A DNA stretch of 64,000 bases from Bacilli bacterium (lineage in GTDB: Bacteria > Bacillota_I > Bacilli_A > RF39 > UBA660). The stretch lies in NCBI GenBank assembly GCA_017398945.1, contig JAFQES010000008.1, positions 15,565-79,564 of the forward strand, written 5' to 3'. Under the pieces are notes generated by a model. That model was not told the origin of the DNA, ran no database searches, and worked only from the letters and a program-made list of their open reading frames with translations. The position numbers were made by a program, and so were the translations under genes. Below are positions 5,904-61,675 of this stretch, piece after piece. Positions within the stretch are counted from its first letter, which is position 1. Each line of letters starts with the position of its first letter.

Positions 5904-6191
5904 ATGAACGAAATAAAATTTCATAGTTTAAATGAATTATATAAAAGATTATTACCGGCTTTAAAAAGCAAAAAGAAAACCTTACATCAAAAAGGTTATA
6001 CTTATATATATGAAGAAGATATATGGAATTGCTGTAAGGCCTCTTGGTCTAAAAGAACTAATTTAGAATTATATAATATGGTAGATGATATTTTAAATAC
6101 CGATGATGAAGTATTTGATAAATATTTAAAAGATTATTTTAAAGGCAGTCACCGCCGATTAAGTAAGGATGAGATACATAGTGAGAACTGA
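5904..6191 (+). CDS. ComN/YrzD-like post-transcriptional regulator family protein
   Basis: 95 aa. The pattern LNELYKRLLPAL...EEDIWNCCKASWSK...LELYNMVDDIL and its position next to the spoVB-like gene match the B. subtilis comN (yrzD) arrangement. Confidence 0.55.
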   Translation: MNEIKFHSLNELYKRLLPALKSKKKTLHQKGYTYIYEEDIWNCCKASWSKRTNLELYNMVDDILNTDDEVFDKYLKDYFKGSHRRLSKDEIHSEN

Positions 6192-8337
6192 CATTTTAAC
6201 AATTGATGATTTATTAAAATTAGTAGACAAAAACTTTCAAAGAAATAATAGTTTAAAAAGGATCAAAAAAGCCTATGATTTTGCTTTAGAAAATCATGCT
6301 GGAAAAACTAGATTAACTAAAGATCCTTACATAATGCATCCATTAAATGTTGCTTATATATTAGCCAATTTAAATGTTGATGAAACAACGATCGTTGCAG
6401 CATTAATTCACGAAACAATAAATAATGGTAATGCTACAGAAGAAGAGATAGAAAATTTATTTGGCATTGAAGTTAAAAATATTGTAAGCATAATTTCGAA
6501 AATAAATAAACTAGAAGCAACAGATGATTCTGATTCAGCATCAATATATTTGCGCAAAGTATTAGTTGGTATGGCAGAAGATGTCAGAATTTTATATGTA
6601 AAATTAGCTGATCGTTTGCACAATATGAGAACAATCTGGGCCGTTCGAAAAGAAAAACAAAAACATAAAGCAAATGAAACTATGAATGTGTTGGTGCCAA
6701 TTGCTCATCGACTTGGAATAAATTCAATTAAAAGTGAATTAGAAAATATATGTTTACGCATTTTAAAACCTGATGTCTACCACGATATTGAAGAAAAATT
6801 AAATGAATCATTCCCTGATTCAAAAATTATTTTAAATGATATGCAAGATGCTATAACAAATATTTTAATTGAAAATGATATTAAATTCGAAATCAAAAGT
6901 CGGGTGAAAAGTGTCTATAGCGTTTACAATAAACTAAATAATGGTAAGAAGTGGAATAATATATATGACTTTTTAGCTTTAAGAATTATTTTAGAAAAAG
7001 AAAGCGATTGCTATTTAGCAGTTGGTTTAATTCATTCTAAATTTAGACCCATGCCAAATCGTTTTAAAGATTATATAGCTATGCCCAAAGAAAACATGTA
7101 TCAATCATTACATACGACAATATTTGGAGCAGATGGACATTTATTCGAAGTTCAATTAAGAACATACGAAATGGACGAGTTTGCCGAAAAAGGTATGGCT
7201 TCTCATTGGTCATATAAAGAAAAAGGCACCAAAAAAGCTCAAAATATTATGGAACAAAAACTAGAAATATTTAGGGCAGTTATCGAAAATAATCGCGATG
7301 AAGAAAATGATAGCATCTTTGCTAAAAATATTTCGGGAGAATTTTTATCAGATTTAATATATGTTTTCACCCCTAAAGGGGATGTTGTAGAACTTCCTAA
7401 AGGAGCAACTCCAATTGACTTTGCTTATCGTATCCATTCAAACGTTGGTTCTAAAATGGTTGGCGCTATCGTAAATGATGTAATGGTTCCATTAACATAT
7501 GAACTACAAGATAATGATATAGTTACCATAAAAACTAGTAATAGTGCAAAACCAAATAAAGATTGGTTAAACATAGTTAAAACATCCCAAGCCAAGAATA
7601 AAATTAAGGCTTATTTTAGCAAACAAGATAAAGCTATGTATATTGAAAGAGGAAAACAATATCTAGAAAAAGAACTGCGCAAAAGAAAACTTTCGATAGC
7701 CGAAACTTTAAGTGACGAAAACATCGAAAAAATATTAAAAGACTTAAAACTTAAAGATCTAAATGATATTTATTTTTCAATTGGATCAGTAAGATACACA
7801 GCCGGCTATATAATTAACTTAACAACTGAAGACAAGCATTCAACCCAAGAAGCATTAATTGAAAAGTTACAAGATAATAAGAAAAATATTGTTTCTAATC
7901 ACAAAAGTGAAATAATTGTTGCTGGAGCTAATGATATTATTGTTAATTTCGCTAAGTGCTGTAATCCGATCAAAGGAGACAATATTGTTGGATATATTAC
8001 TAAAAACCAAGGAATTATCATTCATAAAGAGGGTTGTAAAAATATAGAAAATAAACAAGATCGATTTGTTGATGTTATTTGGAATGAATCTAGTGACAAT
8101 TTATTTATAAGAAAATTACATGTAAAAATAAATGACAATAAAAATCACATGATGGATATTTTTACCTTAGCGGCGAAAAGAAACTTTACAATTGTTTCAA
8201 TCGATACTAAAGAAAGCTATGAAAATAATTTGCCAAACATTAACTACGAAATAAGCATAAAAATCAAAAATATTGCTGAATATAATACATTTGTAAAAGA
8301 TTTAAATAACCAAACATATATAACGGAGGTTTACTGA
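6169..8337 (+). CDS. relA: Long RelA/SpoT homologue with an intact (p)ppGpp synthetase and a degenerate hydrolase motif (RelA-like)
   Basis: Synthetase motifs are present: RVKSVYSVYNK, DFLALRII, DYIAMPKENMYQSLHTT, EVQLRTYEMDEFAEKGMASHWSYKE. A TGS domain (IYVFTPKGDVVELPKGATPIDFAYRIHS), a CC zinc-finger region and a C-terminal ACT/RRM-like domain are also present. The hydrolase HDVxEDT motif reads HETINNG. The start may be ATG 6169 or GTG 6181. Confidence 0.9.
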   Translation: MRYIVRTDILTIDDLLKLVDKNFQRNNSLKRIKKAYDFALENHAGKTRLTKDPYIMHPLNVAYILANLNVDETTIVAALIHETINNGNATEEEIENLFGIEVKNIVSIISKINKLEATDDSDSASIYLRKVLVGMAEDVRILYVKLADRLHNMRTIWAVRKEKQKHKANETMNVLVPIAHRLGINSIKSELENICLRILKPDVYHDIEEKLNESFPDSKIILNDMQDAITNILIENDIKFEIKSRVKSVYSVYNKLNNGKKWNNIYDFLALRIILEKESDCYLAVGLIHSKFRPMPNRFKDYIAMPKENMYQSLHTTIFGADGHLFEVQLRTYEMDEFAEKGMASHWSYKEKGTKKAQNIMEQKLEIFRAVIENNRDEENDSIFAKNISGEFLSDLIYVFTPKGDVVELPKGATPIDFAYRIHSNVGSKMVGAIVNDVMVPLTYELQDNDIVTIKTSNSAKPNKDWLNIVKTSQAKNKIKAYFSKQDKAMYIERGKQYLEKELRKRKLSIAETLSDENIEKILKDLKLKDLNDIYFSIGSVRYTAGYIINLTTEDKHSTQEALIEKLQDNKKNIVSNHKSEIIVAGANDIIVNFAKCCNPIKGDNIVGYITKNQGIIIHKEGCKNIENKQDRFVDVIWNESSDNLFIRKLHVKINDNKNHMMDIFTLAAKRNFTIVSIDTKESYENNLPNINYEISIKIKNIAEYNTFVKDLNNQTYITEVY

Positions 8338-8771
8338 TGAAAGTAGTAGTCCAAAGATGTGAAAAAGCTAGCGTTTCAGTTGATGATAAATTAATTAATG
8401 CCATCGAAAACGGCTTAATGATTTTAGTTGGATTTACCGAAGGGGACACCGAAAAAGAGATTGATTATATGGTCAAAAAAGTTGCTAATTTAAGAATATT
8501 TGATGATGAAAATGGCATTATGAATAAATCTGTTTTAGACATAAAAGGGAGCATTCTATCAATAAGTCAATTTACTTTATATGGTGATGCTTCCAAAGGA
8601 AATAGACCTAGTTATATCAAAGCTCTAAATGGAGAAAAAGCAACAAAATTATATGATTTATTTAATGAAAAACTAAATGAACTAGCTCCAACTAAAACAG
8701 GAGTATTTGGAGCTGAAATGAAAATTGATTTTATAAATGATGGTCCAATAACTATTATTTTAGAAAAATAA
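8337..8771 (+). CDS. dtd: D-aminoacyl-tRNA deacylase
   Basis: MKVVVQR...ASV, SQFTLYGD..KGNRPS, GVFGAEMKIDFINDGPIT. ATGA overlap with the relA stop. Confidence 0.92.
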   Translation: MKVVVQRCEKASVSVDDKLINAIENGLMILVGFTEGDTEKEIDYMVKKVANLRIFDDENGIMNKSVLDIKGSILSISQFTLYGDASKGNRPSYIKALNGEKATKLYDLFNEKLNELAPTKTGVFGAEMKIDFINDGPITIILEK

Positions 8772-8828
8772 TTGAAAGAACATTTTATATTTGTTAATAT
8801 AACAAATAAATTCAGGAGGTTTTTTAAA

Positions 8829-10658
8829 ATGGAAAAATCTAAAACTAATATACTTGTAATTTCAGAACACGAAAAGGATTATAACGCAATTAAAGCTATT
8901 GGTTACACTCACGTAGATTATATTCCCTCATCTGTAGTAGCAACTAAATACTTTAGCGGTAAAAATCGTAACGCATTAAATCAATACCATTATATATTTG
9001 TCAATCATAATATAATAGATAACAATAACTACGGAAACTATGACCACTATAAAAACGAATTTATTGATTTGTTATTTTGCAGAGGATGTCTAGTAATTGA
9101 TTATTTATCACATGAAGATAGCGATGAGATACGTGCTTCTGTTTATACAGGAGCAAAAAAATCATTATTAAATTATAATTTATATCATAATATGAAAGAT
9201 TTATTTGCAAAGTTTGATGAACTCAATTGGAAACACAAGAAAAAAGAGTATCAACCAATAAATTATATAAATCAAAAGAAACTACCTTTATGTCCCTCTT
9301 TAAAAAACATTAAAGTATTAATGTTAATACCTTATCCAGACAAAATAATTGATAAATTAAAATCATTTGCTAATGGGATTGGTATAAAAAAACTTGAAAT
9401 AGTTGAAGACCATAATTGCGCATTTAATGAAAATTACGTCACTAAATTAGCTGATTATGATATTATTTTGGCAAGTAGTCTATATTCAAGCAAAATACTT
9501 AGTTTAGCTAAAGAAGCATCTATTCAATGTCAAGCCTCTGGTAAACAATTACTTATATTACAAACATATAGCGATGTTCTTTATTATAACCAATCAAATA
9601 TACATTATAAAATAATAAAACCAAACCCAGAAAAAATAGAAGACATTTATCAAGAATGTAAATTAGGAATAACAAAAGAAGAAATAGATTTTTATAAATG
9701 GTTATTAGAAACATCGGCATATAGATATATTGCTAAAAGAAATATTATTTGTCCAAGAGGCGAAGTCTTAGAACACAATTTATATAGCGAAAAAAAATAT
9801 GAAACCATATATCAAAATGAGGTTTCTGAAAAAGAAAGAGAATTACAACTTTTTCAAGAAGTATACAGATTTATAAATCGTTATTTTACCGATAAAAACA
9901 TAGACAAAAACAAATTAAGATTGAAAAACTTAAACTTAAAAGAAACGAAATATACAAAAGATTATACAACAATATATGTATATCATGCTTTGTTTGAAAC
10001 TAAAAACAAAGAAAAATACGAAATACTAATTGATACAAAATGTGGTTATAACGGTCGTGAAATTGCTAACACCAATGCAGTTGAATTACAAATCATTAAA
10101 CCATATGACGCTAAATTTAAACCACGCAAATTAAACTTTTCTCAAATCTGGTCTCGTTATGGAGTACATGCCGATTGGGCTAATCCCGAAGATATAACTA
10201 TATTAACTGAATTGTTGCAAGTTCTAAAGCAAGAATTAAAGCCAACATTTAACAAAATAGATGCTGAACAAACTCAAATCATTAATAGAAAATACACTTA
10301 TAGTGAAATAATAAATTCAGTAAAAGAGTATCTAAAACTAGAAAATACTTCCCAAATTTATATTCCTGGTCAAATAAAAATTGAACGCAGAAAAATTGAT
10401 TATAAAATAACCTGCTATATTAACGAAAATCCTGTATCAATTATGATAATTAATAAAGAAAATTGTAGTACTCAATTTGAATTAAGTGTTTTAAATAAAA
10501 ACGGCAATTTAGCTCCAAGTCGAGTAATAAAATTAGATGAGAAACCTCCGTATAACGAGAAAGAATTAACGACACTAGAAGCAATTAAGAAAAAATTGGA
10601 ATTTCATTTAAATAAAAGCAAAGATTGTCAAAAAAGAAATAGAAAGAAGCCGGAATAA
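8829..10658 (+). CDS. Hypothetical 609-aa protein with two N-terminal flavodoxin/receiver-like modules and two beta-rich C-terminal repeats
   Basis: AGGAGG SD 9 nt before ATG 8829. Beta-alpha patterns NILVISEHEKDYNAIKAIGY and IKVLMLIPYPDKIIDKLKSF lack a phospho-acceptor Asp pair. No catalytic motif recognised. The next gene starts 1 nt after the stop. Confidence 0.7.
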   Translation: MEKSKTNILVISEHEKDYNAIKAIGYTHVDYIPSSVVATKYFSGKNRNALNQYHYIFVNHNIIDNNNYGNYDHYKNEFIDLLFCRGCLVIDYLSHEDSDEIRASVYTGAKKSLLNYNLYHNMKDLFAKFDELNWKHKKKEYQPINYINQKKLPLCPSLKNIKVLMLIPYPDKIIDKLKSFANGIGIKKLEIVEDHNCAFNENYVTKLADYDIILASSLYSSKILSLAKEASIQCQASGKQLLILQTYSDVLYYNQSNIHYKIIKPNPEKIEDIYQECKLGITKEEIDFYKWLLETSAYRYIAKRNIICPRGEVLEHNLYSEKKYETIYQNEVSEKERELQLFQEVYRFINRYFTDKNIDKNKLRLKNLNLKETKYTKDYTTIYVYHALFETKNKEKYEILIDTKCGYNGREIANTNAVELQIIKPYDAKFKPRKLNFSQIWSRYGVHADWANPEDITILTELLQVLKQELKPTFNKIDAEQTQIINRKYTYSEIINSVKEYLKLENTSQIYIPGQIKIERRKIDYKITCYINENPVSIMIINKENCSTQFELSVLNKNGNLAPSRVIKLDEKPPYNEKELTTLEAIKKKLEFHLNKSKDCQKRNRKKPE

Positions 10659-10659
10659 T

Positions 10660-11337
10660 ATGGCTGATGTAGTAAAAATTGAAGATCGTTCATTATGCGC
10701 TGAATGCGGCGGACAATGTTGCAAAAAATGTGGTTGTGATTTATTTATATCTGATATTGAAAAACCAGAATATGATTATATTAATAAGTTATTAGATAGC
10801 GGACGAGTTTCAATTGTATCAAGAATATATGTTTTGCCGTTAAAAAATGGCTCATACGCTATAAATCCATTTTTACATTTAAGAACTAGAAATATTGATA
10901 GAGAGGCAATAGATTTATTTTCTTTGAAAAAAACATGTGCATCATTAGAAGATGATGGTTGTTTTTGGGATTTATACCACCGACCAAGCGGAGCAACTCA
11001 TATTAAACCATCAAAAAATGCAGCTGGAGAGTTTACATGCAAGCCTACATTAGATCACAAAGCAGAAATAAAAAAATGGGAAAAATACCAAAAACTACTA
11101 GCTAAAATTGTTAAAGAAAGAACCGGTAACACAGTATATGAACAACTAAGATTAGATGTTATAAAAACATTTAATGACATATTAAATAGAAATTTTGAAG
11201 GAGTTAGCAAAGAAGCTTTAGAAGAGTTCGAAGAAATATTTCCAGTATTAAAATCAAGATATGCTGATGAATATAAAATCGCTCAAGAAACTTATAAAAA
11301 ACAGAACCCATTGCTTCTTAGAATTCATCGTCAATAA
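10660..11337 (+). CDS. CxxCxxCC-motif (YkgJ/UPF0153-like) zinc/iron-chelating domain protein with a helical C-terminal extension
   Basis: CAECGGQCCKKCGC near the N-terminus and CASLEDDGCFWDLYHRPSG downstream. This matches the two-part Cys pattern of the YkgJ family. Confidence 0.7.
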   Translation: MADVVKIEDRSLCAECGGQCCKKCGCDLFISDIEKPEYDYINKLLDSGRVSIVSRIYVLPLKNGSYAINPFLHLRTRNIDREAIDLFSLKKTCASLEDDGCFWDLYHRPSGATHIKPSKNAAGEFTCKPTLDHKAEIKKWEKYQKLLAKIVKERTGNTVYEQLRLDVIKTFNDILNRNFEGVSKEALEEFEEIFPVLKSRYADEYKIAQETYKKQNPLLLRIHRQ

Positions 11338-11349
11338 TTATTAAATTAA

Positions 11350-11378
11350 TTGACTAAACAACAAAAAAGTTATAAAAT
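11350..11378 (+). promoter_or_regulatory. Promoter of the hisS-aspS leader
   Basis: TTGACT (11350-11355), 17 nt spacer, TAAAAT (11373-11378). Confidence 0.5.
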
Positions 11379-11384
11379 AAAAAT

Positions 11385-11582
11385 ATAGTTTTTCTATGGA
11401 AAGACAAGTAATTTATTATTTAAAGTTTACAGAGAAGACGGATGGTGCAAAAGTCTAACAAAAATAATAAACGAAGACACTTTCATAATTAGAAACGCTT
11501 GCGAGCGATAAAATATTAAGACCTAGAAGTAAGGTGGCACCGCGGGATTATCTCGCCCTTACACGCTAGGTCTTTTTTTAGA
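11385..11582 (+). promoter_or_regulatory. T-box riboswitch leader (His specifier) controlling hisS-aspS
   Basis: AGAGA and GGTGCAA stem-I elements. GAA-GA-CAC specifier context (CAC at 11478-11480). T-box core AAGGTGGCACCGCGG at 11531-11545. Terminator aagacctag/ctaggtctt followed by a T-run (11518-11581). Confidence 0.85.
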
Positions 11583-11595
11583 AAGAAGGATAAAA

Positions 11596-12861
11596 ATGAT
11601 AACAAAACCCAAGGGAACTTATGACATTTTAGGAAAAGATGCAGTAATTAACGGATATTACAACGACATATGTGAAAGTTACGCTAAATTATATAACTTT
11701 AATTATGTTAGAACCCCAATTTTTGAAAGCAGTGACTTATATCATAGAAGTGTAGGAGAAACCAGTGATATTGTCACAAAAGAAACCTATGATTTTAAAG
11801 ATCGTTCTGAAAGAAATATGACATTACGCCCAGAAGGAACAGCTGGAGTAGTAAGATGTTTAATCGAAAATAAATTATACGGAAACAGAAATGACGCGAT
11901 AAAACTTTATTATAATGGCACAATGTATCGTTACGAAAGACCACAAGCAGGAAGAAACCGTGAATTTACTCAATTCGGCATTGAAATGTTTAATTCAAAT
12001 GACCCTTTAAGTGACGCTGAAGTAATTAGTATCGGTTATAACATTTTACAAGAATTAGGAATTGAATCATTAGTTGTAAATATAAACTCTTTAGGAGATA
12101 AAGAATCACGCCAAAACTACACAAAAGCTCTAGTTGATTATTTAACTCCAAGAATAAATGAATTATGTGAAGATTGCCAAAAAAGGCTTAAAACTAATCC
12201 ACTACGTATACTAGATTGTAAATATGATCAAAATAATGAAATTCTAAAAAACGTTCCTAAAATGACTGATTATTTAAATGAAGAAAGCCAAAAAAGATTT
12301 AAAGAAGTATTAAATAATCTAGATGTTTTAGAAGTTGATTATGTTGTAAATCCTAATATTGTTAGAGGACTAGATTATTATGATCACACTGTTTTTGAAT
12401 TCATTTTAGAAGATAAAGGTATCACTTTAGGAGCAGGCGGACGATATAATAGCCTAGTTAAAGAGCTTGGAGGCCCTGAAATACCAGCCGTTGGTTTTGC
12501 TTTTGGAAATGAACGTATCATAAATGAATTAAAAGAACATTCAGTATTTAGTGAACTACCTGAAGATTATCAAGGTAATGTTGATGTATATATTATGTCT
12601 GTTAGCGACGAAGAAAAACTAAATGCTTTAAAAATAAGTCAAAATTTACGTTTAAATGGAATTAGTTGTGAAATTAATTCGAATAATCTAAGCATGAAAA
12701 GTCAATTTAAAATAGCAGATAAATTAAATGCTAAACAATTAATCATTTTAAATAGTGAAGACTTACAAAAAGGTTTAATTAATATTAAAGATAACGCTAC
12801 TAAAGAAGAACAAAAAATTGATGAAGACGAAGTAGTAGAATACTTAGTTGGAATATTATAA
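11596..12861 (+). CDS. hisS: Histidine--tRNA ligase
   Basis: Class II aaRS HisRS motifs: GTYDIL, MTLRPEGTAGVVR, MYRYERPQAGRNREFTQFG, GGRYNSL, AVGFAFG. Confidence 0.93.
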   Translation: MITKPKGTYDILGKDAVINGYYNDICESYAKLYNFNYVRTPIFESSDLYHRSVGETSDIVTKETYDFKDRSERNMTLRPEGTAGVVRCLIENKLYGNRNDAIKLYYNGTMYRYERPQAGRNREFTQFGIEMFNSNDPLSDAEVISIGYNILQELGIESLVVNINSLGDKESRQNYTKALVDYLTPRINELCEDCQKRLKTNPLRILDCKYDQNNEILKNVPKMTDYLNEESQKRFKEVLNNLDVLEVDYVVNPNIVRGLDYYDHTVFEFILEDKGITLGAGGRYNSLVKELGGPEIPAVGFAFGNERIINELKEHSVFSELPEDYQGNVDVYIMSVSDEEKLNALKISQNLRLNGISCEINSNNLSMKSQFKIADKLNAKQLIILNSEDLQKGLINIKDNATKEEQKIDEDEVVEYLVGIL

Positions 12862-20360: not shown

Positions 20361-20385
20361 TTTATACATAATAGAGGTGACTAGT

Positions 20386-22167
20386 ATGTTTGGAAGAATT
20401 TTATATATTTCCGATAATATTGCAGAAGTAGAAAATGTAGCACAAGGAACAATTACAGCTGACTTAATGAATGTTCATGTGATTTTCGAATCACAAGATC
20501 AAAGAATTTTAGGAGAAATTACAGAATTAAACGATAAAACCATGAAAATAAGGTTTTTAGGAGAATACATTAATGGTAAATACGTAAATGGTATTATGCG
20601 TAAGCCATTATTATCTTCTAAAATAAGAATTATTAGTAATAATGAATTATTAGAATTAGTTGGACAACCAACCAATAAAAGTTTTACTTTAGGAAAAAGT
20701 GCTGTATACAAAAACTATACCATTTATCCGGAAATAAATAGTTTTTTTTCAAGCCATCTAGCTATATTTGGTAACTCAGGTAGTGGTAAATCTTGTGGAG
20801 TAGCAAGAATTGTTCAAAATGTATTTTCTAATCCAAGCATGTTATCATCTAATGCGAACCTTTTTATTTTTGATGCTTATGGTGAATATAAAAATGCCTT
20901 TGCAGCTATAAGTAATTACAACGAAAACTATAATTATAAATTTATAACTACAAACCCAGAAGATGAAAATGATTTTCTACTTCAAATCCCAACTCATTTA
21001 CTTACATTAGATGACTGGGCATTAATGTTACAAGCATCTAATCATAGTCAATTACCAATCATTGAAAGAACTATCAAGCTAGCTAAGATATTTGCTCAAA
21101 ATGACCAAGCTGCTCAAGCATATAAGAGTCATCTAATAGCTAAAGCTCTACTTGCTGTATTATTTAGTAGTGAAACAACCGCCTTAAAGAAAAATCAAAT
21201 CTTTACTATTATTGAAGTATGTAATACCCCTGAATTTAACTTTGGTAGTGTAATTCCTGGATTAGGTTATACTAGAACATTAAGCGAATGCTTTGAAATA
21301 GATTCCAACGGAAACTTTGGTGAAAGTGTTTTAATTACTAATTATATTCTAAGCTTTATCAAAGATGATATTGAAAATATTACCGTACCAACTGATAGTT
21401 TCTATTCGATAAGAGATTTTGCTAAAGCCATGGAATTTACTTTGATTAGTGAAGGATTCCAAAACAATGAAAACTTATATTCAGATTCAATTATTTTAAA
21501 AGTACGTTTAAACGCTATTATAACAAGTAAAGTAGGTAGCTATTTTGAGGGAAATGGTTATACACCAGTTGAAAAATATATTACATCATTAATCGATAAA
21601 CGTGGTAAAAAATCGCAAATTATTAATATTAACTTAGAAGATATCGACGATGTTTATGCTAAAGTAATTGTTAAAATATTCTGTCGCTTATTATTTGAAT
21701 ATAATAAAAATCGTAAAGAAAGAGCTCAAGTACCATACCATTTATTCTTAGAAGAAGCTCATAGATACATTCAAAAAGATTCTGATACATTCTTAATCGG
21801 ATACAACATCTTTGATCGTATCGCTAAAGAAGGAAGAAAATACGGTGTTATTTTAGATATAATTAGTCAACGTCCAGTTGAAATATCAGATACAGTTATA
21901 GCTCAGTGTTCAAACTTTTTAATCTTTAAAATGACCCATCCACTAGATATAAAATACATTGAAGAAATGTTACCAAATATCTCTAGTGATGTAATTGAAA
22001 AGCAAAAAGTATTACAACCGGGAAGTTGTGTAGGTTTTGGAGGGGCATTCAAAATTCCTATGATTGTTAAATTAGACATGCCAAATCCATCACCAGCATC
22101 TGCAAACTGTGATGTATCAACTTGTTGGGCAAACAATAATCAAATAGAAAACGGAAACGAGGTTTAA
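20386..22167 (+). CDS. HerA/DUF87-family ATPase with an N-terminal HAS-barrel
   Basis: HAS-barrel-like N-terminus (GRILYISDNIAEVENV...ILGEITELNDKTMKIRFLGE). Walker A AIFGNSGSGKSCGV. Walker B YHLFLEEAHRY. EGRKYGVILDIISQRPVEISDTVIAQCSNFLIFKMTHPLD and LQPGSCVGFGGAF, typical of the HerA/COG0433 C-terminus. Confidence 0.8.
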   Translation: MFGRILYISDNIAEVENVAQGTITADLMNVHVIFESQDQRILGEITELNDKTMKIRFLGEYINGKYVNGIMRKPLLSSKIRIISNNELLELVGQPTNKSFTLGKSAVYKNYTIYPEINSFFSSHLAIFGNSGSGKSCGVARIVQNVFSNPSMLSSNANLFIFDAYGEYKNAFAAISNYNENYNYKFITTNPEDENDFLLQIPTHLLTLDDWALMLQASNHSQLPIIERTIKLAKIFAQNDQAAQAYKSHLIAKALLAVLFSSETTALKKNQIFTIIEVCNTPEFNFGSVIPGLGYTRTLSECFEIDSNGNFGESVLITNYILSFIKDDIENITVPTDSFYSIRDFAKAMEFTLISEGFQNNENLYSDSIILKVRLNAIITSKVGSYFEGNGYTPVEKYITSLIDKRGKKSQIININLEDIDDVYAKVIVKIFCRLLFEYNKNRKERAQVPYHLFLEEAHRYIQKDSDTFLIGYNIFDRIAKEGRKYGVILDIISQRPVEISDTVIAQCSNFLIFKMTHPLDIKYIEEMLPNISSDVIEKQKVLQPGSCVGFGGAFKIPMIVKLDMPNPSPASANCDVSTCWANNNQIENGNEV

Positions 22168-22169
22168 AA

Positions 22170-23324
22170 ATGAAAAAGATAGAAAAATATATAATAGCAG
22201 TAATAACCCTAATCGCAATTGGAGCTATAGGAACAGCAATTTATTTTGGGCTGAATAAAACTGATGAGGTGAATAACAAGCTTGAAAACAATGTTGAAAC
22301 AAATAAAGATGATCAAGAAAATACTACAAAAAAAACTACTTTAACATTTTATAAAAATGATAAAGTACTATCTACGTTTGAATGTGATGGAGAATGTCGT
22401 GTGGTAACTTTCGATCAGGATTATTTCGAAGATTCGGATTACTATGTTAAAATTAAAGAAAATATTGAAGGTGAATCAGTTCAATATTTAGGATCTCAAA
22501 ATATTAATGTAATTATAGAATATTGTAAAAATGATATCTGTCAAGGCATAAATTCTTATAACAAAGATTACTTTGAACCTAAAATCGAAAAAAATAAGGC
22601 TGTCGGAATAGTATTATTATATAATATAGAAACCGGAAATTATAATAATTATAATAACATATCGAAAACTTTTTATGGAACTAATATGACTATTTTAGAA
22701 AATAAACAAAACAACGAATACAATTACACAGTATTACTTAAAAATGGTTTTTCACGCGAATTGACAACAACGCCAACTATCTATGATGAAGGAAATCGCC
22801 ATATGAAATTCCCTAAAACAGACGGGGACGTGTTAATTAGCGAAAATAATTATAAATTTGGTGTAGAAGAATTAAAAACTGGTAAAGTGATTATTAAACA
22901 CGAATACGATGACATTTACAGCTACGATGAAGATACATATGTTGCGAAAAAAGATGGTTCATATAATGTATACAATTCCAAAACAAATACAAAATTATTT
23001 AATAAAGATTACAAAATAATTTATAAAATTAATAACAACTCATATATGGTCTTAAATGAAAATAAAGTTCAAGTTATAAATGAAAAAGAGAAGATAATCT
23101 CTAAAAATAATTTTGAAGTTAAAGAAGTTTGTAAAAATTCATACATGCAAAGAGGTTATAGGGCATATGAACAGGATGGTAAATATCATATCGATATATG
23201 TGCATCAGATAAAATAGATAAAAATGGTGTAGCTATTGGCAGCTATGAAGCAGAACTTAACTATAAATATGATCTAAAAACAAGAAAATTTGAAGGAATA
23301 ATTAATTATAATTGGTCTGAATAA
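22170..23324 (+). CDS. Membrane-anchored extracytoplasmic protein with a Cys-rich region and WG-repeat-like beta repeats
   Basis: Starts 2 nt after the HerA-like stop, with its SD (GAGG) inside the HerA 3' end. N-terminal TM segment YIIAVITLIAIGAIGTAIYFGL. Repeats of the type YKFGVEELKTGKVIIKHEYDDIYSYDEDTYVAKKDGSYNVYN. Confidence 0.65.
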   Translation: MKKIEKYIIAVITLIAIGAIGTAIYFGLNKTDEVNNKLENNVETNKDDQENTTKKTTLTFYKNDKVLSTFECDGECRVVTFDQDYFEDSDYYVKIKENIEGESVQYLGSQNINVIIEYCKNDICQGINSYNKDYFEPKIEKNKAVGIVLLYNIETGNYNNYNNISKTFYGTNMTILENKQNNEYNYTVLLKNGFSRELTTTPTIYDEGNRHMKFPKTDGDVLISENNYKFGVEELKTGKVIIKHEYDDIYSYDEDTYVAKKDGSYNVYNSKTNTKLFNKDYKIIYKINNNSYMVLNENKVQVINEKEKIISKNNFEVKEVCKNSYMQRGYRAYEQDGKYHIDICASDKIDKNGVAIGSYEAELNYKYDLKTRKFEGIINYNWSE

Positions 23325-23382
23325 AAATCATGTAAACATATGTAAAAAATACATAAGGAATTACATATTATTATAATATTTG

Positions 23383-23391
23383 TGTTATAAT
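23383..23391 (+). promoter_or_regulatory. Extended -10 promoter (TGtTATAAT) for the structured RNA
   Basis: tgttataat at 23383-23391. The predicted start near G23398 coincides with the 5' arm of the closing helix. Confidence 0.5.
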
Positions 23392-23397
23392 AAAAAT

Positions 23398-23578
23398 GCC
23401 TGAGAAGAGTAGTTTGTTTTATATAAAACCGACTAAGATAAAATATAGGGAATCTAATTGGTGTATTGTGTTGAAGACTGATCCATTAAGTGAATCAGAA
23501 TCCTAATATGCATCATGTGATGCCCACCTCGCGAGAGCGGGTTTTTATCACTGACAAACTCCTTCTTGGGTTTTTATT
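23398..23578 (+). ncRNA. ssrS: Candidate 6S RNA (ssrS / bsrA-like) in the aspS-side to tcdA intergenic slot
   Basis: About 180 nt with its own promoter. The 5' end CCTGAGAAG..TTTGT (23399-23417) pairs with the 3' end ACAAA..CTTCTTGGG (23554-23570). A second helix pairs ATAAAACCG (23423-23431) with CGGGTTTTTAT (23538-23548). There is a large internal region with an apical hairpin (CTGAT/ATCAG, 23478-23498) and a U-tract at 23571-23578. B. subtilis 6S-1 (bsrA) is encoded in the aspS-yrvM(tcdA) intergenic region. Confidence 0.5.
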
Positions 23579-23590
23579 TGGAGGTAAAAT

Positions 23591-24274
23591 ATGTTTGATA
23601 AGCTAAATAAACTTATATCAGAAAAACATTTTAAAATAATGCAAAATACCCACATATTACTAGTAGGTATAGGTGGAGTAGGAGGTTATGCTTTTGAAGC
23701 TCTAGTACGTAGCGGAATAGGCAAAATAACCATTATTGATCACGATGTAATTGATATTACAAATTTAAATAGACAAATCATTACAAATCAAGAGAATATT
23801 AATCAAAAGAAAATTGCTGAAGCAAAAAAAAGAGCTTTAGAAATAAATCCTGGATGTGAAATAATTACTCATGATTTATTTTTAGATGAATCAAATATAG
23901 ATGAAATATTTAAAGATAAATTTGATTATATCATCGATGCTTGTGATACCATTACTACAAAAGTTTTACTTGTAAAAAAAGCTCAAGAATTAAATATTAA
24001 ATTAATTTCTTGTATGGGTACTGGAAATAGATTAGATCCTTCTAAAGTAATGATTACAAAACTAAATAAGACTTATAATGATCCATTAGCTAAGGTAATG
24101 CGTAAGCTTTTAAAAGATAATAATTTAAAGACAAATATCAATGTTGTTTGGAGTAGTGAATTGCCAATTAAAACTCGTGATAGAAAACCAAGTTCAATTA
24201 TCTTAGTTCCAAGCGTAGCCGGAATTTATGCTGCTTCATATATAATTAATGACATATTAAAAACTGATTTATAA
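23591..24274 (+). CDS. tcdA: tRNA threonylcarbamoyladenosine dehydratase (ThiF/MoeB-fold, TcdA/YrvM)
   Basis: HILLVGIGGVGGYAFEALVRSGIGKITIIDHDVIDITNLNRQI, IIDACDT, CMGTGNRLDP, YNDPLAKVMRKLL. Confidence 0.85.
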   Translation: MFDKLNKLISEKHFKIMQNTHILLVGIGGVGGYAFEALVRSGIGKITIIDHDVIDITNLNRQIITNQENINQKKIAEAKKRALEINPGCEIITHDLFLDESNIDEIFKDKFDYIIDACDTITTKVLLVKKAQELNIKLISCMGTGNRLDPSKVMITKLNKTYNDPLAKVMRKLLKDNNLKTNINVVWSSELPIKTRDRKPSSIILVPSVAGIYAASYIINDILKTDL

Positions 24275-24283
24275 TCGGTCTTT

Positions 24284-25477
24284 TTATTTGGTAAATTCTT
24301 GATGAATCTTATTTATATTATTTTCATATTTATTATTAGCTGGATGATAATATTTTTTATTTTTAATCTTATCTGGTAAATATTGTTGCTTTACATAACT
24401 ATTTGGATAATTATGGGGATACAAATAATCTATGCTATGGGTTTTAATGTGATTAGGAACTTGCCCAGTATTTCCTTTTTCTAAATCTTCTAAAACTGCA
24501 TTCAAAGCTATATGAGCACTATTACTTTTAGGAGATAAAGCCATCTCAGTCACAATAGTACCTAAAGGAATTCTGGCTTCTGGTAACCCAACTAATTCAC
24601 TAGCTGAAATAGCTGCCATAATCTTAGGACCAATACCAGGATTAGCTAAACCAATATCTTCATAAGCAATTACTGATAAACGTCTATAGATACTATCTAA
24701 ATCGCCACCTTTAATTAACTTTCCCAGGTAATATAATGAAGCATCAACATCACTACCACGAATCGACTTTTGTAAAGCACTTAAAATATCATAGTGATTA
24801 TCTTCATCATTATCAAAAGAAAAGTTAGCTTTACTTGAAATTGTTTTTAATAAATCAATATCTATACGTTTATCAGAAGAAGAGTAGTAAGCTACTTCTA
24901 AAGTATTTAAAGCATTTCTTAAATCTCCTCCGGCATGATAAGTAATATATTTAATTGCATCACCATCAATTTGACAATCAGGTAAAGCTTTAGCCCCTTT
25001 TAAAATACCGTCTTCGATATCTTCATCATTTAAATCATGTAATTCAAATATTTGGCATCTGCTTCTAATCGCTGGATTTATTTTAAAATATGGATTAGAT
25101 GTAGTTAAACCTATCAAAATAATTAAGCCAGATTCAATATGAGGAAGCAGTATATCTTGTTTATCTTTATTCATTCGATGAATTTCATCAACCACCAATA
25201 TTAATTCACCATACATTGCAGCTTCTTTTATAGCAATATCAAAATCACTTTTATTATTAATTGTAGCATTTAAAAAACGATGATGAATATCAAGCTCACT
25301 AACAATCGCCTGAGCAATACTTGTTTTACCAATACCAGGTCGACCATACAAAATCATCGAAAATAATTTCTTATTTTTAATCATATTACTAATAACTTTA
25401 TTTTCTCCAACTAAATGTTTCTGACCAATTACTTCGCTTAAAGATTTTGGTCTTAGTTCATTTGATAAAAGCTTCAT
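24284..25477 (-). CDS. rarA: Replication-associated recombination protein A (AAA+ ATPase)
   Basis: LRPKSLSEVIGQKHL, Walker A LYGRPGIGKTS, Walker B LVVDEIHR, NPA..SRC, YHYD..SA..KS.RGSD.DA..YYL, GLPE. Confidence 0.92.
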   Translation of the reverse strand: MKLLSNELRPKSLSEVIGQKHLVGENKVISNMIKNKKLFSMILYGRPGIGKTSIAQAIVSELDIHHRFLNATINNKSDFDIAIKEAAMYGELILVVDEIHRMNKDKQDILLPHIESGLIILIGLTTSNPYFKINPAIRSRCQIFELHDLNDEDIEDGILKGAKALPDCQIDGDAIKYITYHAGGDLRNALNTLEVAYYSSSDKRIDIDLLKTISSKANFSFDNDEDNHYDILSALQKSIRGSDVDASLYYLGKLIKGGDLDSIYRRLSVIAYEDIGLANPGIGPKIMAAISASELVGLPEARIPLGTIVTEMALSPKSNSAHIALNAVLEDLEKGNTGQVPNHIKTHSIDYLYPHNYPNSYVKQQYLPDKIKNKKYYHPANNKYENNINKIHQEFTK

Positions 25478-25558
25478 AAAATCACCTTAAATTATTATAA
25501 CAAATAATTCTTGTTTTACCAAATTATGTTTAATATAATAAAGATGAGGATTGATTAC

Positions 25559-26434
25559 ATGAAAGAGTTAGAAAAATATCTTGATTATTTACGATTCGAA
25601 AGAAAATTATCAAATAATACAATTGCATCTTATGAAAACGATTTATTAATGCTATATAATACATTAAATAAACCTTTTACAAGCATCACAACATCAGATA
25701 TAAGAGATTACTTAGTAAAATCTAATCAAAAAAGCGATCGTACAAGAGCTCACAATATAACCGTATTTAATAATTTTTATACTTTTTTAGTATCAGAAAA
25801 TATAATGGCTAAAAATCCATGCGAAGATATATCTCAACCAAAATTAACTAAAAAACTTCCTAAATACCTTACTATAGAAGAAGTAGATAAACTATTAGAT
25901 ATTAAATTAAATACACCTTTAGATTATCGTAATAAAGCGATGTTAGAACTATTATATGCAACCGGTGTTAGAATAAGTGAACTTCTTGATTTAAAATTAA
26001 GCGATATTGATTTAGAAGAAGCTTTTATTAGAGTAATAGGAAAGGGTGACAAACAAAGAATAGTTCCCATGGGAGATATTGCAATTAAATACTTAAAAAT
26101 GTATCTTTTAGAAAACCGTAATTTTTTAATAAAGAAAAAATCTAGTGAATATGTATTCTTAAATAATTATGGAAATCAAATGACTAGACAAGGTTTCTTT
26201 AAAATACTAAAAAAACAGTGCCTTATAAGCGGAATTAAGCAAGATATTAGTCCACATACTCTAAGACATTCTTTCGCTTCACATTTGCTAAATAATGGGG
26301 CAGATTTAAGAGTAATTCAAGAACTTTTAGGACATACTGATATTTCTACAACCCAAATATATACACATTTATCTACAGATAAATTAAAAAGTGATTATAA
26401 AGCACATCCCCATCAAAAAAAGGAACATAATTAA
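25559..26434 (+). CDS. xerD: Tyrosine site-specific recombinase XerD/XerC type
   Basis: YLDYLRFERKLSNNTIASYENDL, ELLYATGVRISEL, GKGDKQRIVP, HTLRHSFASHLL..GADLR.IQELLGH..ISTTQIYTH. GAGGA SD before ATG 25559. Confidence 0.88.
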   Translation: MKELEKYLDYLRFERKLSNNTIASYENDLLMLYNTLNKPFTSITTSDIRDYLVKSNQKSDRTRAHNITVFNNFYTFLVSENIMAKNPCEDISQPKLTKKLPKYLTIEEVDKLLDIKLNTPLDYRNKAMLELLYATGVRISELLDLKLSDIDLEEAFIRVIGKGDKQRIVPMGDIAIKYLKMYLLENRNFLIKKKSSEYVFLNNYGNQMTRQGFFKILKKQCLISGIKQDISPHTLRHSFASHLLNNGADLRVIQELLGHTDISTTQIYTHLSTDKLKSDYKAHPHQKKEHN

Positions 26435-26452
26435 CGTTCCTTTTGTTTTTTA
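26417..26452. terminator. Bidirectional terminator between xerD and the small basic ORF
   Basis: aaaaaaaggaac-ataattaac-gttcct-tttgtttttt: a 6-bp GC-containing stem flanked by an A-run and a T-run. Confidence 0.45.
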
Positions 26453-26457
26453 AATAA

Positions 26458-26613
26458 CTATTTACTGTTGTTATTACGTTTATTAGCATTACTTCTGCTA
26501 CTATTATTCTTGCTATTTCTAGATTCTTGTTGTTTAGAAGATCTTTCATTAGCACGAGAATTATTATTTCTAGCATTAGCCTTGCTATTATTATTTCTTG
26601 AACTATTATTCAT
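26458..26613 (-). CDS. Unannotated 51-aa highly basic Asn/Ser/Arg-rich low-complexity protein
   Basis: GGAGG SD 7 nt upstream of ATG (26613). Translation: MNNSSRNNNSKANARNNNSRANERSSKQQESRNSKNNSSRSNANKRNNNSK. Contains RNNNS[KR]AN repeats. Below the 60-aa ORF-track cutoff. A terminator follows. Confidence 0.55.
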   Translation of the reverse strand: MNNSSRNNNSKANARNNNSRANERSSKQQESRNSKNNSSRSNANKRNNNSK

Positions 26614-26689
26614 AATCTTACCTCCTACTTATATTATGGTAAGAATTTAATTAATAATGCGATATAAATAGTGGTAATAATTGGCTAAT

Positions 26690-27094
26690 TTATTCTGGTT
26701 TAACACGTATTTTATAATGTTTTGCTCTAAAGCAGTAATCCGGATAGTCTTCCCAAGAAGGTATTAATATCCCTCCATTATTTAGAGCCACTTTAGATGA
26801 AGCTTTATTTACCGCTACTATATATAATTCTAGTAAATCATCTTGATATATATTATACATTAATCTTTTTAATAAGCCTAATGCATCTGTAGCAATATGC
26901 ATTTTTTGGTATTGAGGAAAAACAGAATACATGACTTCATTATTCATTTCTGGATCAAAACCAATCGTCCCAACAACTTCATTTGTCTTAAGTAAAATAA
27001 TATTATAAATTTTTCTCATAGTGCTACTAGATTTGTGCGATAAAACTAGAGCAATACGATCATCATTTATTATATAAGCATCATTACTTTCCAT
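26690..27094 (-). CDS. GNAT-family N-acetyltransferase-like protein
   Basis: 134 aa. IGF...V.P.YQ..HIATDALGLL motif-A-like segment and NKASSKVALNNGG, typical of the RimJ/RimL-type GNAT C-terminus. Confidence 0.5.
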   Translation of the reverse strand: MESNDAYIINDDRIALVLSHKSSSTMRKIYNIILLKTNEVVGTIGFDPEMNNEVMYSVFPQYQKMHIATDALGLLKRLMYNIYQDDLLELYIVAVNKASSKVALNNGGILIPSWEDYPDYCFRAKHYKIRVKPE

Positions 27095-38010: not shown

Positions 38011-40263
38011 TTATTTAATTTTTTTTAGAAAATCCACTTTTTTGGGCTTGTTTAACATAAAAATCCCTAAAATCATCATAAATATACCAACTTTTAAAAA
38101 GCAACAACATTTTAAAAACGAATCACCAGTTTGGGGATTAGACACTTCTTCTTTTGGCATATCAAATTCAGGAATAACTTCTTCTGGTTTAGAAACAATA
38201 ATTGGTGGAATAATTATTTCCGTTTTAGAATCATTAATATTAGGGGTAATTATTCCTTCTGGAATTACAATTTCTTCTTCAGGTAAAACTTCTTTTATAC
38301 TTTCTTTTTCTTTTAAATAATTAATTATTTCCAAATTGTTATTTAAACCACTAAATATAACTTCAATGGGTTCAAGCGGTTTGTAATCTTCACTTGTATC
38401 TTCTAAAAAATAGTAATTTCCATACCATAAGTTAGAAAATGAAGCGATTGCATCTTTATTAGTTATTTGACATTGAATTAGCTCATTTTTACTATAAATT
38501 AAATCTTTGCTTTTAAAGATATCTTCATTTGCATATAAACAAAATTTAATATCAATTCCCGGAGCTAAAATTTTTGTTTCTTCATGAGATATCTCTTGTT
38601 TTTTCAAAATATTAATATTATATCTTTTTTCTTTATTAATTAGAACAATTTCAACTTTATCATTATTACTTTCATCTATTATAAATTCTTTCTTAACACC
38701 CGTTTCGTAATAATCATTATCTTCTTCTAGTTCTTCAATAATATAGGTTCCGAAAGGAAGCTTTATTGGCAAGATAATTTGACCATTTTCCGCAAATTTA
38801 AATATTTCCTTATTTTCATACAATATATAACAATTTCTCTTTACATCATAAATTTTAAACTGAAAACTCATATTTTTTATAAGTTCATTATTTTCATCAA
38901 ACTTTTTGACAGTTACCTGTGATAAAACCGGCTCATTTAAAATAGTTTTATCTATGATTAATGATTCAGTTACACTAATAATTATTTCATCTGCCAACTT
39001 ATAACCAACCTTACCAGCTATTTGTTTTATTTTATAATCTCCATAAGGAATTTTAAATGTTAACTCGCCGTTACTATTTGTTTCTTTTTTTATAAGTAAA
39101 TTATCTTCCAAATCATATATTCCAAACAACGCGTTATTTTCTAAAATCAAATTATCCCAATCATTGTAATATTTTTTTATATTAAGGCGCATTACAATTG
39201 GTTTTTCCCAAACTGTTATCTCATTAATTGCACCATCAGAAACCTCTATTTGATATATTGTTTCATCAAGTTCATAGCCAAGGCTAGGAGAAATCTCTTT
39301 AATATAATATTTTCCTACTTTTAAATAATCCGTTAAAATAACTCCATTAGAATCGGTATTAAATTCTTGATAAAAAGAATCATTATATATAGCATACTTT
39401 GCGCCTTGTAGACTAATTAAAGGACTTTTAAAATCAACAGCAGCATTATCAATTGATTTTTTTAACAATCTAATTTGTCCTTTTTTTACGTGCACATTAT
39501 AAGTTAGTTCTTTAGAGGGTAAAGTTCCTCTTGTTATAACAGACTGAGCGCCATCATATTTATATAATATAGGAGCAATACCCTCTGTTTTTAATCTCAG
39601 TTTAAAAGAGAAATCATCAATAACATTATTTAAATATAAATAATTAGAATTAACTGAAACATTATTATTTGTTATTAATTCATAATTATTTAAAACATTA
39701 TTATAGTCTATTATTCTTCTGGTTTCTAAATAATCAAGTTCAATATTTTGACTAACCGTAGGATTTAAATAATAATTATTTACTAAAGCTAAAATTTCGT
39801 TTATTTTATCATCATACTTATTTATTTTCTCTCCTCTTAACTTATCAGTAAAATAAACATCCCAGCCATCTGGTAATACTTCTAACCAAATAAGGTATTG
39901 CGTAACCGCATACCATTCTAAATCTTGATGATTGTCATATTGATATCCATAATAAGCAATAAGATTAATCTTTTCCCAAGTTTTTTCACTAACATTTAAA
40001 TGACTCCACTGATTTGTTTCATATGCATTATAAACCTCTTCGGCATTTATAGCTACTCCCGGCATAACACAATAAACAAAAGCGTTATCACTTTTTCTTC
40101 TAATTACTTTCACATAATTAGCAGCCTTCTTGTACCCCTTATCCATTAAAGTATAAACTCCCGGTATTGGCAAGTCCAAAAAAAACATTTTTGAACTATC
40201 CGCTTTGATACATAAAGGGATTAAAAATAACCCAAATAAAACCAATAATATTTTCTTAATCAT
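38011..40263 (-). CDS. Sortase-anchored surface adhesin: N-terminal thioester (TQXA-type) domain plus about four SpaA/Cna-B (prealbumin-fold) repeats and an NPQTG sorting signal
   Basis: Signal peptide MIKKILLVLFGLFLIPLCIKA. Candidate thioester Cys in FVYCVMPGV and Gln in AVTQYLIW. Repeats of the form GAKYAIYN...TDSNGVILTDYLKVGKYYIKEISPSLGYELDE. C-terminal NPQTGD, then a hydrophobic stretch and a KKVDFLKKIK tail. Confidence 0.8.
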   Translation of the reverse strand: MIKKILLVLFGLFLIPLCIKADSSKMFFLDLPIPGVYTLMDKGYKKAANYVKVIRRKSDNAFVYCVMPGVAINAEEVYNAYETNQWSHLNVSEKTWEKINLIAYYGYQYDNHQDLEWYAVTQYLIWLEVLPDGWDVYFTDKLRGEKINKYDDKINEILALVNNYYLNPTVSQNIELDYLETRRIIDYNNVLNNYELITNNNVSVNSNYLYLNNVIDDFSFKLRLKTEGIAPILYKYDGAQSVITRGTLPSKELTYNVHVKKGQIRLLKKSIDNAAVDFKSPLISLQGAKYAIYNDSFYQEFNTDSNGVILTDYLKVGKYYIKEISPSLGYELDETIYQIEVSDGAINEITVWEKPIVMRLNIKKYYNDWDNLILENNALFGIYDLEDNLLIKKETNSNGELTFKIPYGDYKIKQIAGKVGYKLADEIIISVTESLIIDKTILNEPVLSQVTVKKFDENNELIKNMSFQFKIYDVKRNCYILYENKEIFKFAENGQIILPIKLPFGTYIIEELEEDNDYYETGVKKEFIIDESNNDKVEIVLINKEKRYNINILKKQEISHEETKILAPGIDIKFCLYANEDIFKSKDLIYSKNELIQCQITNKDAIASFSNLWYGNYYFLEDTSEDYKPLEPIEVIFSGLNNNLEIINYLKEKESIKEVLPEEEIVIPEGIITPNINDSKTEIIIPPIIVSKPEEVIPEFDMPKEEVSNPQTGDSFLKCCCFLKVGIFMMILGIFMLNKPKKVDFLKKIK

Positions 40264-61287: not shown

Positions 61288-61390
61288 TATAATCCTTCTT
61301 TCTCTTAATTTTAATTTACGTATAAAACGTCTCTTAATTTTATGAAACATCACAAACAATTATTATCTTCTTTCAAAAAATCACACCCTT

Positions 61391-61669
61391 AAAAAAACCC
61401 GTTTCATCCCAAACATAAGGACGAATACGGGTATTTCGCGGTGCCACCTTAATTTATTACTAAAGGTTATTATACCTTTTATTTTAGTAATCTCTTTTGC
61501 TCTATTAAGCATTAGCAATATGATAACGGTTTGCATCCGAACTAGTCTACTAAGATAATTCCTTTCGGCAGTTTGCTCTAAGGTGTTCTTTCACAATATC
61601 CCTATAATCAGTTCACACTATACCTGATTCACTCGTATAAGCAATAAGGTTACTTTTCCTCTTCATCGC
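61391..61669 (-). promoter_or_regulatory. T-box riboswitch leader (Asn specifier) controlling asnA
   Basis: Minus strand: GCGATGAAGAGG...AGTA stem-I base. GAA-AG-AAC-A specifier context (AAC = plus 61585-61587). T-box core AAGGTGGCACCGCG (61450-61437). Terminator ACCCGTATTCGTCC...GGATGAAACGGGTTTTTTT (61433-61391). Confidence 0.85.
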
Positions 61670-61675
61670 AAAAAC

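Follow-up and report, generated by a model that had tools for sequence, protein, structure and literature searches.

A stretch of DNA of 64,000 nucleotides (nt), hereafter the window (GenBank assembly GCA_017398945.1, contig JAFQES010000008.1, positions 15,565 to 79,564), was analyzed for two adjoining genes which lie between dtd and hisS. The first gene encodes a protein of 609 amino acids (aa; MBQ4583464.1, called BIG here) and the second a protein of 225 aa (MBQ4583465.1, called SMALL). The source is an NCBI metagenome-assembled genome (MAG) labelled "Bacilli bacterium", and the G+C content of the window is about 27%. These are probably two independent, dispensable accessory genes that were set back-to-back by a recent insertion in the conserved relA-dtd-hisS-aspS cluster. 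The order of events can be read from related strains: SMALL was present first, BIG was inserted, and both were later deleted in some strains. A conserved two-gene system of BIG and SMALL is not supported.

The initial annotation of this DNA had proposed a coupled two-protein system, and the distribution of the two families across genomes speaks against it, this being the outcome which the annotation itself had named as a refutation. A tblastn search with 84 BIG-family proteins placed BIG beside SMALL in none of 80 SMALL genome loci, each covered by about 20 kb around the match, and SMALL was found near BIG-family genes in none of eight loci (about seven distinct genomic settings) within the DNA around them. 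Adjacency is confined to the window's own clade, namely to L004, L005, L102 and L103, which have 87-93% nucleotide identity to the window. The relatives of BIG are mostly flanked by genes of the opposite strand and lie in unrelated chromosomal contexts. The upstream neighbours of SMALL in 82 loci belong to more than 35 unrelated families, e.g. TyrS, ThrS, LysS, MurE, Tex, GroEL and phosphotransferase system (PTS) components, and the gap between the upstream gene and SMALL is typically 40-90 nt.

The history of the locus was reconstructed from three natural states (SMALL only, BIG with SMALL, and neither), which provide ready-made comparisons. In the relatives L016 and L038 the order is murJ-like/ComN-like/relA/dtd/SMALL without BIG, and in L016 it runs on into hisS-aspS; the identity of these two to the window is about 60% for RelA and about 63% for HisS. 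SMALL also lies upstream of hisS in L003 and L012. Since relA-dtd-SMALL occurs without BIG in moderately distant relatives (L016 and L038), SMALL is the older resident and BIG was inserted later between dtd and SMALL; this insertion would have happened in one species-level clade. In three other relatives (L106, L107 and L108), whose HisS is 97.6% identical to that of the window and whose flanks are 89-96% identical, the following segment is missing:

8781-11245, no strand: segment with BIG and most of SMALL, missing in L106, L107 and L108 (blastn breakpoints)

These three genomes retain a decayed remnant of the last ~70 nt of SMALL, with a 3-nt deletion, and downstream of this remnant the hisS promoter and T-box are near-identical (at least about 98%). 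The loss is a secondary deletion which removed both genes in one event, and it shows that the locus can do without either of them. The joint absence was also considered as a proof of linkage and was rejected, as a single deletion with a SMALL remnant suffices.

On the + strand the genes follow each other as ComN-like, relA, dtd, BIG, SMALL, hisS, aspS, asnS, gatA and gatB. The features around the pair, as obtained from the open reading frame (ORF) list, family scans and inspection of the sequence, are given below.

5904-6191, + strand: ComN-like post-transcriptional regulator (ORF list and family scan)
6169-8337, + strand: relA (ORF list and family scan)
8337-8771, + strand: dtd (D-Tyr-tRNA deacylase), upstream flank (PF02580, E 2.7e-57)
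8814-8819, + strand: Shine-Dalgarno AGGAGG for BIG (read from the sequence; 9 nt before ATG 8829)
8829-10658, + strand: BIG, 609 aa, MBQ4583464.1 (ORF, start, NCBI call)
10660-11337, + strand: SMALL, 225 aa, MBQ4583465.1 (ORF, NCBI call)
11350-11378, + strand: hisS promoter-like site TTGACT-17-TAAAAT (consensus scan)
11391-11563, + strand: hisS T-box leader (RF00230, 76.8 bits, E 4.6e-17, local search)
11596-12861, + strand: hisS, downstream flank (PF13393, E 6.5e-42, and PF03129)

The reading frame of BIG is open from TTG 8772, and the likelier start is ATG 8829, downstream of AGGAGG; this start gives 609 aa and agrees with the NCBI call MBQ4583464.1. The stop codon TAA occupies 10656-10658 and the ATG of SMALL is at 10660, with a spacer of 1 nt. 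Both proteins are annotated as hypothetical by NCBI. A simple consensus scan of 8772-11400 found no terminator-like sites. The layout described in the initial annotation (a gene pair between dtd and a T-box-led hisS, the 10658/10660 spacing and no visible terminator) thus agrees with the ORFs and with the consensus scan. The hisS T-box score of 76.8 bits is below the Rfam gathering score of 93 because the centre of the model (about positions 102-130) is missing from the match. This leader resembles a reduced T-box and has a CAC (His) triplet about where the specifier would be expected.

Compared with a relative, the ratio of nonsynonymous to synonymous substitution rates (dN/dS) is 0.205 for BIG and 0.148 for SMALL, and 0.036-0.075 for relA, dtd, hisS and aspS. 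Both ORFs are under purifying selection and yet evolve faster than their neighbours, a pattern which suits accessory genes. These raised rates, along with presence and absence varying between near-identical strains and the annotation of both genes as hypothetical, would also be expected of a cassette for anti-phage defence, or of a mobile accessory one, that had entered a housekeeping operon. We give this explanation hardly any weight. The PADLOC models, searched to E 0.1, matched neither BIG nor SMALL nor three BIG relatives, the PHROG hits were insignificant, neither family has relatives in the IMG/VR viral contigs, and the fold search in BFVD gave low TM-scores (template modelling scores) only. 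For a mobile cassette, the borders showed no integrase and the G+C is like that of the surroundings, no dedicated search for flanking repeats having been run; moreover, the polymorphism is a deletion that leaves a gene remnant and not an insertion site, and distant relatives keep SMALL in this cluster by vertical descent. With no PADLOC match, no viral relative and no integrase or shift in composition, neither kind of cassette is likely.

No family of Pfam, NCBIfam, PHROG or PADLOC matched BIG. Among 1.84 billion cluster representatives, searched exhaustively with phmmer, there were only 88 BIG relatives, two of which are fragments of one same protein. The remaining relatives are about 450-780 aa long and have a common region at about residues 5-250 with 25-35% identity, the best-conserved part of the family being modules 1 and 2 described below. 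A single relative, P0079, aligns across residues 2-571. Most of the relatives have an extra N-terminal domain of ~120 aa and just one C-terminal module; P0017 apparently carries more than one, and basic C-terminal tails recur among the homologues.

A confident AlphaFold2 (AF2) model of BIG was built from an alignment of 84 sequences, with a pLDDT (predicted local distance difference test) of 81.5 and a pTM (predicted template modelling score) of 0.75. In this model, beta-alpha module 1 is at residues 7-131 and beta-alpha module 2 at 162-275, followed by helices at 285-354, a beta-meander at 368-435, a long helix at 453-505, a second beta-meander at 509-568, a terminal helix at 577-601 and a basic tail. 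The corresponding segments of the window are as follows.

8841-9221, + strand: BIG residues 5-131, CheY-like module 1 (AF2, local Foldseek matches to CheY/PleD; Asn at the Asp57 position)
9306-9656, + strand: BIG residues 160-276, CheY-like module 2 (AF2, hhalign; motifs LGDYDIIIAS and ESTEQCKDTGR)
9843-10172, + strand: BIG residues 339-448, helix and beta-meander, copy 1 (hhalign self-match, AF2)
10293-10541, + strand: BIG residues 489-571, helix and beta-meander, copy 2 (hhalign self-match, AF2)
10557-10655, + strand: BIG residues 577-609, terminal helix and basic tail (…QKRNRKKPE; AF2)

The duplication which had been noticed at both ends of BIG was recovered by profile comparison. The C-terminal modules (339-448 against 489-571) align with an hhalign probability of 96% and E 1.4e-9; BLASTP between the C-terminal halves is not significant (E 1.5), so that the repeat is visible by profile-profile comparison only. 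The N-terminal modules align more weakly with each other (probability 60%, E 8.5e-5). Module 2 against E. coli CheY gave a probability of 60% and E 8.8e-5; in this hhalign alignment Asp57 of CheY is replaced by Ser in module 2 ("IIAS/ILAS") and Asp12/13 by non-acidic residues. In module 1, Asp57 corresponds to Asn in a weak hhalign alignment. Foldseek of BIG against the PDB gave local matches to CheY/PleD only, with a probability of 0.85-0.97 over 58-87 residues. The receiver-like character of the N-terminus, initially described as lacking the acidic phospho-acceptor pocket, is supported by these local matches and by the module 2 alignment, where Ser takes the place of Asp57.

Foldseek was also one of the checks suggested for both proteins in the initial annotation, and it gave no global structural match to BIG in the PDB or BFVD (query-normalised TM-scores up to 0.14) and no match to SMALL in the PDB at E up to 0.001. 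The helix and beta-meander repeats with the basic tail had no match in the structure libraries searched, sequence-profile searches of the PDB found nothing for the BIG and SMALL families, and PF00072 (Response_reg) gave no Pfam match for BIG or for 10 relatives. One sub-threshold Pfam match to BrxL_N in one of the 10 BIG relatives scanned was treated as chance. "Tandem pseudo-receivers" is a fair label for the N-terminal modules, and BIG is a member of a sparse, fast-evolving orphan family, for which no relative by fold or sequence is known outside the receiver-like modules. From the predicted fold, the architecture would consist of two pseudo-receivers without the canonical Asp for phosphorylation, a linker of helices, helix and beta-meander modules in one to three copies and a basic tail. 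With tandem pseudo-receivers and a repeated module without structural match, the BIG family would be worth studying in structure and function.

Some further observations concern the relatives of BIG. P0079 (660 aa, 27% identity) is a distant full-length paralogue of BIG at 10001-11983 of L090, on the same contig (scaffold_91) as L106, the relative in which BIG and most of SMALL are missing; ruvA and a RhuM-like gene flank it, some 13.5 kb away from hisS, and the equivalent spot is just beyond the left end of the window. On the contig of a spore-former (L096, 5084-10352), the gene of an uncharacterised 963-aa protein is immediately followed by a BIG-family gene of 783 aa, which has further C-terminal modules, and both are downstream of a sigma-factor/SpoVA operon, which may be a coincidence. 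A sporulation link for the family was considered as GerA, CotE and SpoVA genes are near three relatives; it was dropped, as spore-formers commonly have such genes and none was recognised in the ~30 window ORFs that were read or scanned (~4.5-45.5 kb).

SMALL belongs to a larger family. A word-indexed search gave six relatives, and a scan of one genome per species gave at least 115 stretches that encode relatives at 35-45% identity, all from gut MAGs of the "Bacilli", "Tenericutes" or "Mycoplasma sp. CAG" type. The family length is about 215 aa. Eight cysteines (C13, C16, C20, C21, C26, C93, C101 and C127) are essentially invariant in the 81 distinct members compared. The N-terminal motif CAECGGQCCKKCGC is present and family-invariant, as are C93...C101...R108-P109. 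The same holds, entirely or almost, for LYLRARN, for R108-P109 with a mostly conserved SGG behind it, and for W140-x2-YQ. The segments of SMALL in the window are given here.

10696-10737, + strand: SMALL residues 13-26, CX2CX3CC-X4-C with C13, C16, C20, C21 and C26 (invariant in 80-81 of 81 members)
10936-11040, + strand: SMALL residues 93-127, C93-X7-C101-X6-R108-P109 … C127 (invariant columns)
11056-11331, + strand: SMALL residues 133-224, helical bundle tail (AF2 helices)

The AF2 model of SMALL (pLDDT 76) has a beta-sheet core and a helical bundle, with low confidence around the metal-free cysteine knot. The helical tail that had been noticed from the sequence is found in the model as helices at 133-155, 159-175, 184-200, 202-215 and 217-224. 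In Pfam, SMALL of the window had no hit at E up to 1. When 25 members of the family were scanned singly, PF03692, the CxxCxxCC or YkgJ family with a putative zinc- or iron-chelating domain, was the most frequent Pfam family, being the top one for four of them; its matches reach 17-18 bits against a cut-off of 23 (best E 4.5e-4) and span residues 9-106, i.e. both cysteine regions, with profile positions up to 64 of 85. By sequence, SMALL appears to be a distant, sub-threshold relative of the PF03692/YkgJ family and has the look of a branch that diverged within the YkgJ/FliB cysteine-cluster group. The YkgJ/FliB-type assignment of the initial annotation is thus kept as a distant likeness, through the PF03692 matches of four of 25 relatives; as a direct assignment it does not hold, since the matches are sub-threshold, the window protein itself has no hit and the motif is CX2CX3CC and not CX2CX2CC.

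By analogy with FliB, SMALL may bind a [4Fe-4S] cluster (or zinc) and act as a single-subunit metallo-enzyme, possibly a modifying enzyme dependent on S-adenosylmethionine (SAM) like FliB or DpdM, in which the C-terminal helical bundle would be a substrate-binding or oligomerisation domain. That SMALL is a metal or [4Fe-4S] protein is what we infer from this analogy. The family is kept in over 100 species of uncultured gut Bacilli with reduced genomes, and the models of Pfam, NCBIfam, PHROG and PADLOC did not recognise it; a curated model combined with biochemistry would clear one hypothetical protein from many gut genomes.

Two unrelated ORFs of 52 aa were seen just upstream of SMALL homologues (L001, 3461-3619, and L003, 1037-1195); one is Tyr/Pro-rich with a hydrophobic stretch and the other is small, hydrophobic and maybe membrane-inserted. 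Aminoacyl-tRNA synthetase genes, identified by eye, often directly adjoin SMALL homologues (L010-L089), with TyrS in five loci, ThrS in three and LysS in two, and HisS neighbours SMALL in the window clade and in L003. These synthetase counts are uncorrected for shared synteny and may be due to chance.

A tie of SMALL to translation, through a modification related to tRNA or aminoacyl-tRNA synthetases or through redox sensing and with BIG irrelevant, is an unlikely explanation. It would fit the gene's surroundings, since the window clade, L016 and L038 have SMALL within the relA-dtd-(hisS) cluster and L003 and L012 have it ahead of hisS. It would fit, too, the TyrS (five loci), ThrS (three) and LysS (two) genes named by eye as immediate upstream genes, and the YkgJ relative DpdM, which is proposed to modify a nucleobase. 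Most SMALL loci have no adjoining translation gene, related genomes share synteny so that the counts are not independent, and with ~20-25 synthetase genes in a small genome chance proximity is not rare. In addition, strains with a HisS 97.6% identical to that of the window have no SMALL at the locus.

Several points weigh against the explanation by two independent genes, or against the roles attached to them. Linkage was read as adjacency and not as genome-wide co-occurrence, and at least one genome has both families unlinked (L018, with a BIG-family gene 8.4 kb from SMALL on the opposite strand). BIG and SMALL vanish together in L106-L108, though one 2.5-kb deletion explains it. The packing is tight in every strain that has both genes, which would suit co-expression and could stem from a functional link particular to this lineage; the two overlap by 8 nt in L005, L102 and L103, and the spacer in the window is 1 nt. 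As for the roles, the score of SMALL relatives for PF03692 is sub-threshold, and the SMALL alignment, compared by hhalign with E. coli YkgJ alone, reached a probability of 0.5%, a single-sequence target being too weak for this comparison. For BIG we infer a non-enzymatic adaptor or scaffold, which is a guess from its architecture.

The same packing enters into a quite improbable alternative, in which the genes form a lineage-specific pair: SMALL would be a FliB-like [4Fe-4S]/SAM methyltransferase, and the lysine-rich, translationally coupled upstream BIG would serve it as substrate or as regulatory partner. Four strains keep the 1-nt spacer or the 8-nt overlap, the two genes evolve at similarly raised rates, and SMALL has the X3CC spacing and the eight conserved Cys in common with FliB. 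Set against this are the conservation of SMALL in at least 115 genomes without an adjoining BIG, the dtd-SMALL order without BIG in L016 and L038, the finding that SMALL is never near BIG relatives, the SMALL family being without a relevant NCBIfam match at E up to 10 (presence of a FliB model being assumed), and the joint loss being one deletion event. It is very unlikely that in the window clade a FliB-like SMALL captured the newly inserted BIG scaffold as a coupled substrate or regulator, as a young dispensable module caught at birth. For such an enzyme-substrate link, drawn by the FliB/flagellin analogy, the tight packing is the sole support.

Under the explanation that we favour, two independent accessory genes, BIG and SMALL would probably be co-transcribed and translationally coupled in the clade which has both, as a local packing effect and not as a conserved partnership. 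As a "system" they have little significance, the pairing being a recent accident of gene order.

Other features were recorded elsewhere in the window. Near 24 kb (22000-27000) the GC skew turns from positive to negative and the gene orientation from + to -, with converging genes; this switch is probably the replication terminus. A RarA-like ATPase (24284-25477, - strand) and a XerD-like recombinase (25511-26434, + strand) were identified there by eye, and a 6S RNA (23394-23576, + strand; RF00013, 62.2 bits, above the gathering score) lies just before the switch. At 20377-23324 (+ strand) a HerA-like DUF87 ATPase (596 aa; PF01935, 1.7e-18) is followed after 2 nt by a protein of 384 aa whose N-terminus has a hydrophobic segment, and this pairing is kept in L102 and L106. 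A 750-aa protein (38011-40263, - strand) has a signal-like sequence at its N-terminus and, at its C-terminus, NPQTG and then a hydrophobic tail, and looks by eye like a sortase-anchored surface protein. A second T-box leader (61414-61675, - strand; 103 bits, above the gathering score) lies upstream of a 346-aa ORF (60319-61359, - strand).

The two proteins were finally compared with known systems. Pseudo-receiver domains have the CheY-like fold without the phospho-acceptor, and KaiA, CikA and the plant PRR proteins are examples of them. BIG resembles such domains in its predicted beta-alpha CheY-like modules, with Ser or Asn at the Asp57 position and no acidic pair after beta-1, and differs in being without a Pfam Response_reg match and without a global structural match. 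Members of PF03692 share with SMALL the N-terminal C-X2-C…CC cluster followed ~70 residues on by C…C…RP. The cluster of SMALL is CX2CX3CC, which is one residue longer than CX2CX2CC, and SMALL adds a helical bundle of ~90 aa and the motif RPSGG, where canonical members of PF03692 carry RP-x-x-C.

The gene fliB adjoins the flagellin gene, and FliB is about twice the size of SMALL. In FliB, the flagellin lysine-N-methyltransferase of Salmonella, the N-terminal motif CX4CX3CC binds a [4Fe-4S] cluster needed for SAM-dependent lysine methylation, and eight Cys are conserved (PMC8598068). SMALL has the same X3CC spacing and eight conserved Cys, with a first spacing of X2 in place of the X4 of FliB. 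SMALL has no Pfam or NCBIfam match that would tie it to FliB, and 25 family members scanned at E up to 10 gave no relevant NCBIfam hit, a FliB model being assumed to be in the library; no flagellar genes were seen in the parts of the window that were read. DpdM (DUF3109), a phage protein which according to its authors has E. coli YkgJ as a homologue, is a proposed preQ1 methyltransferase (bioRxiv 10.1101/2023.04.13.536721). It is phage-encoded and works in a 7-deazaguanine pathway, whereas SMALL is without viral relatives and no such pathway was seen alongside it; the likeness is that DpdM is a second member of the cysteine-cluster group tied to methyl transfer. The characterised members of the YkgJ/FliB group that were found are all unusual iron-sulphur (Fe-S) or SAM methyltransferases.

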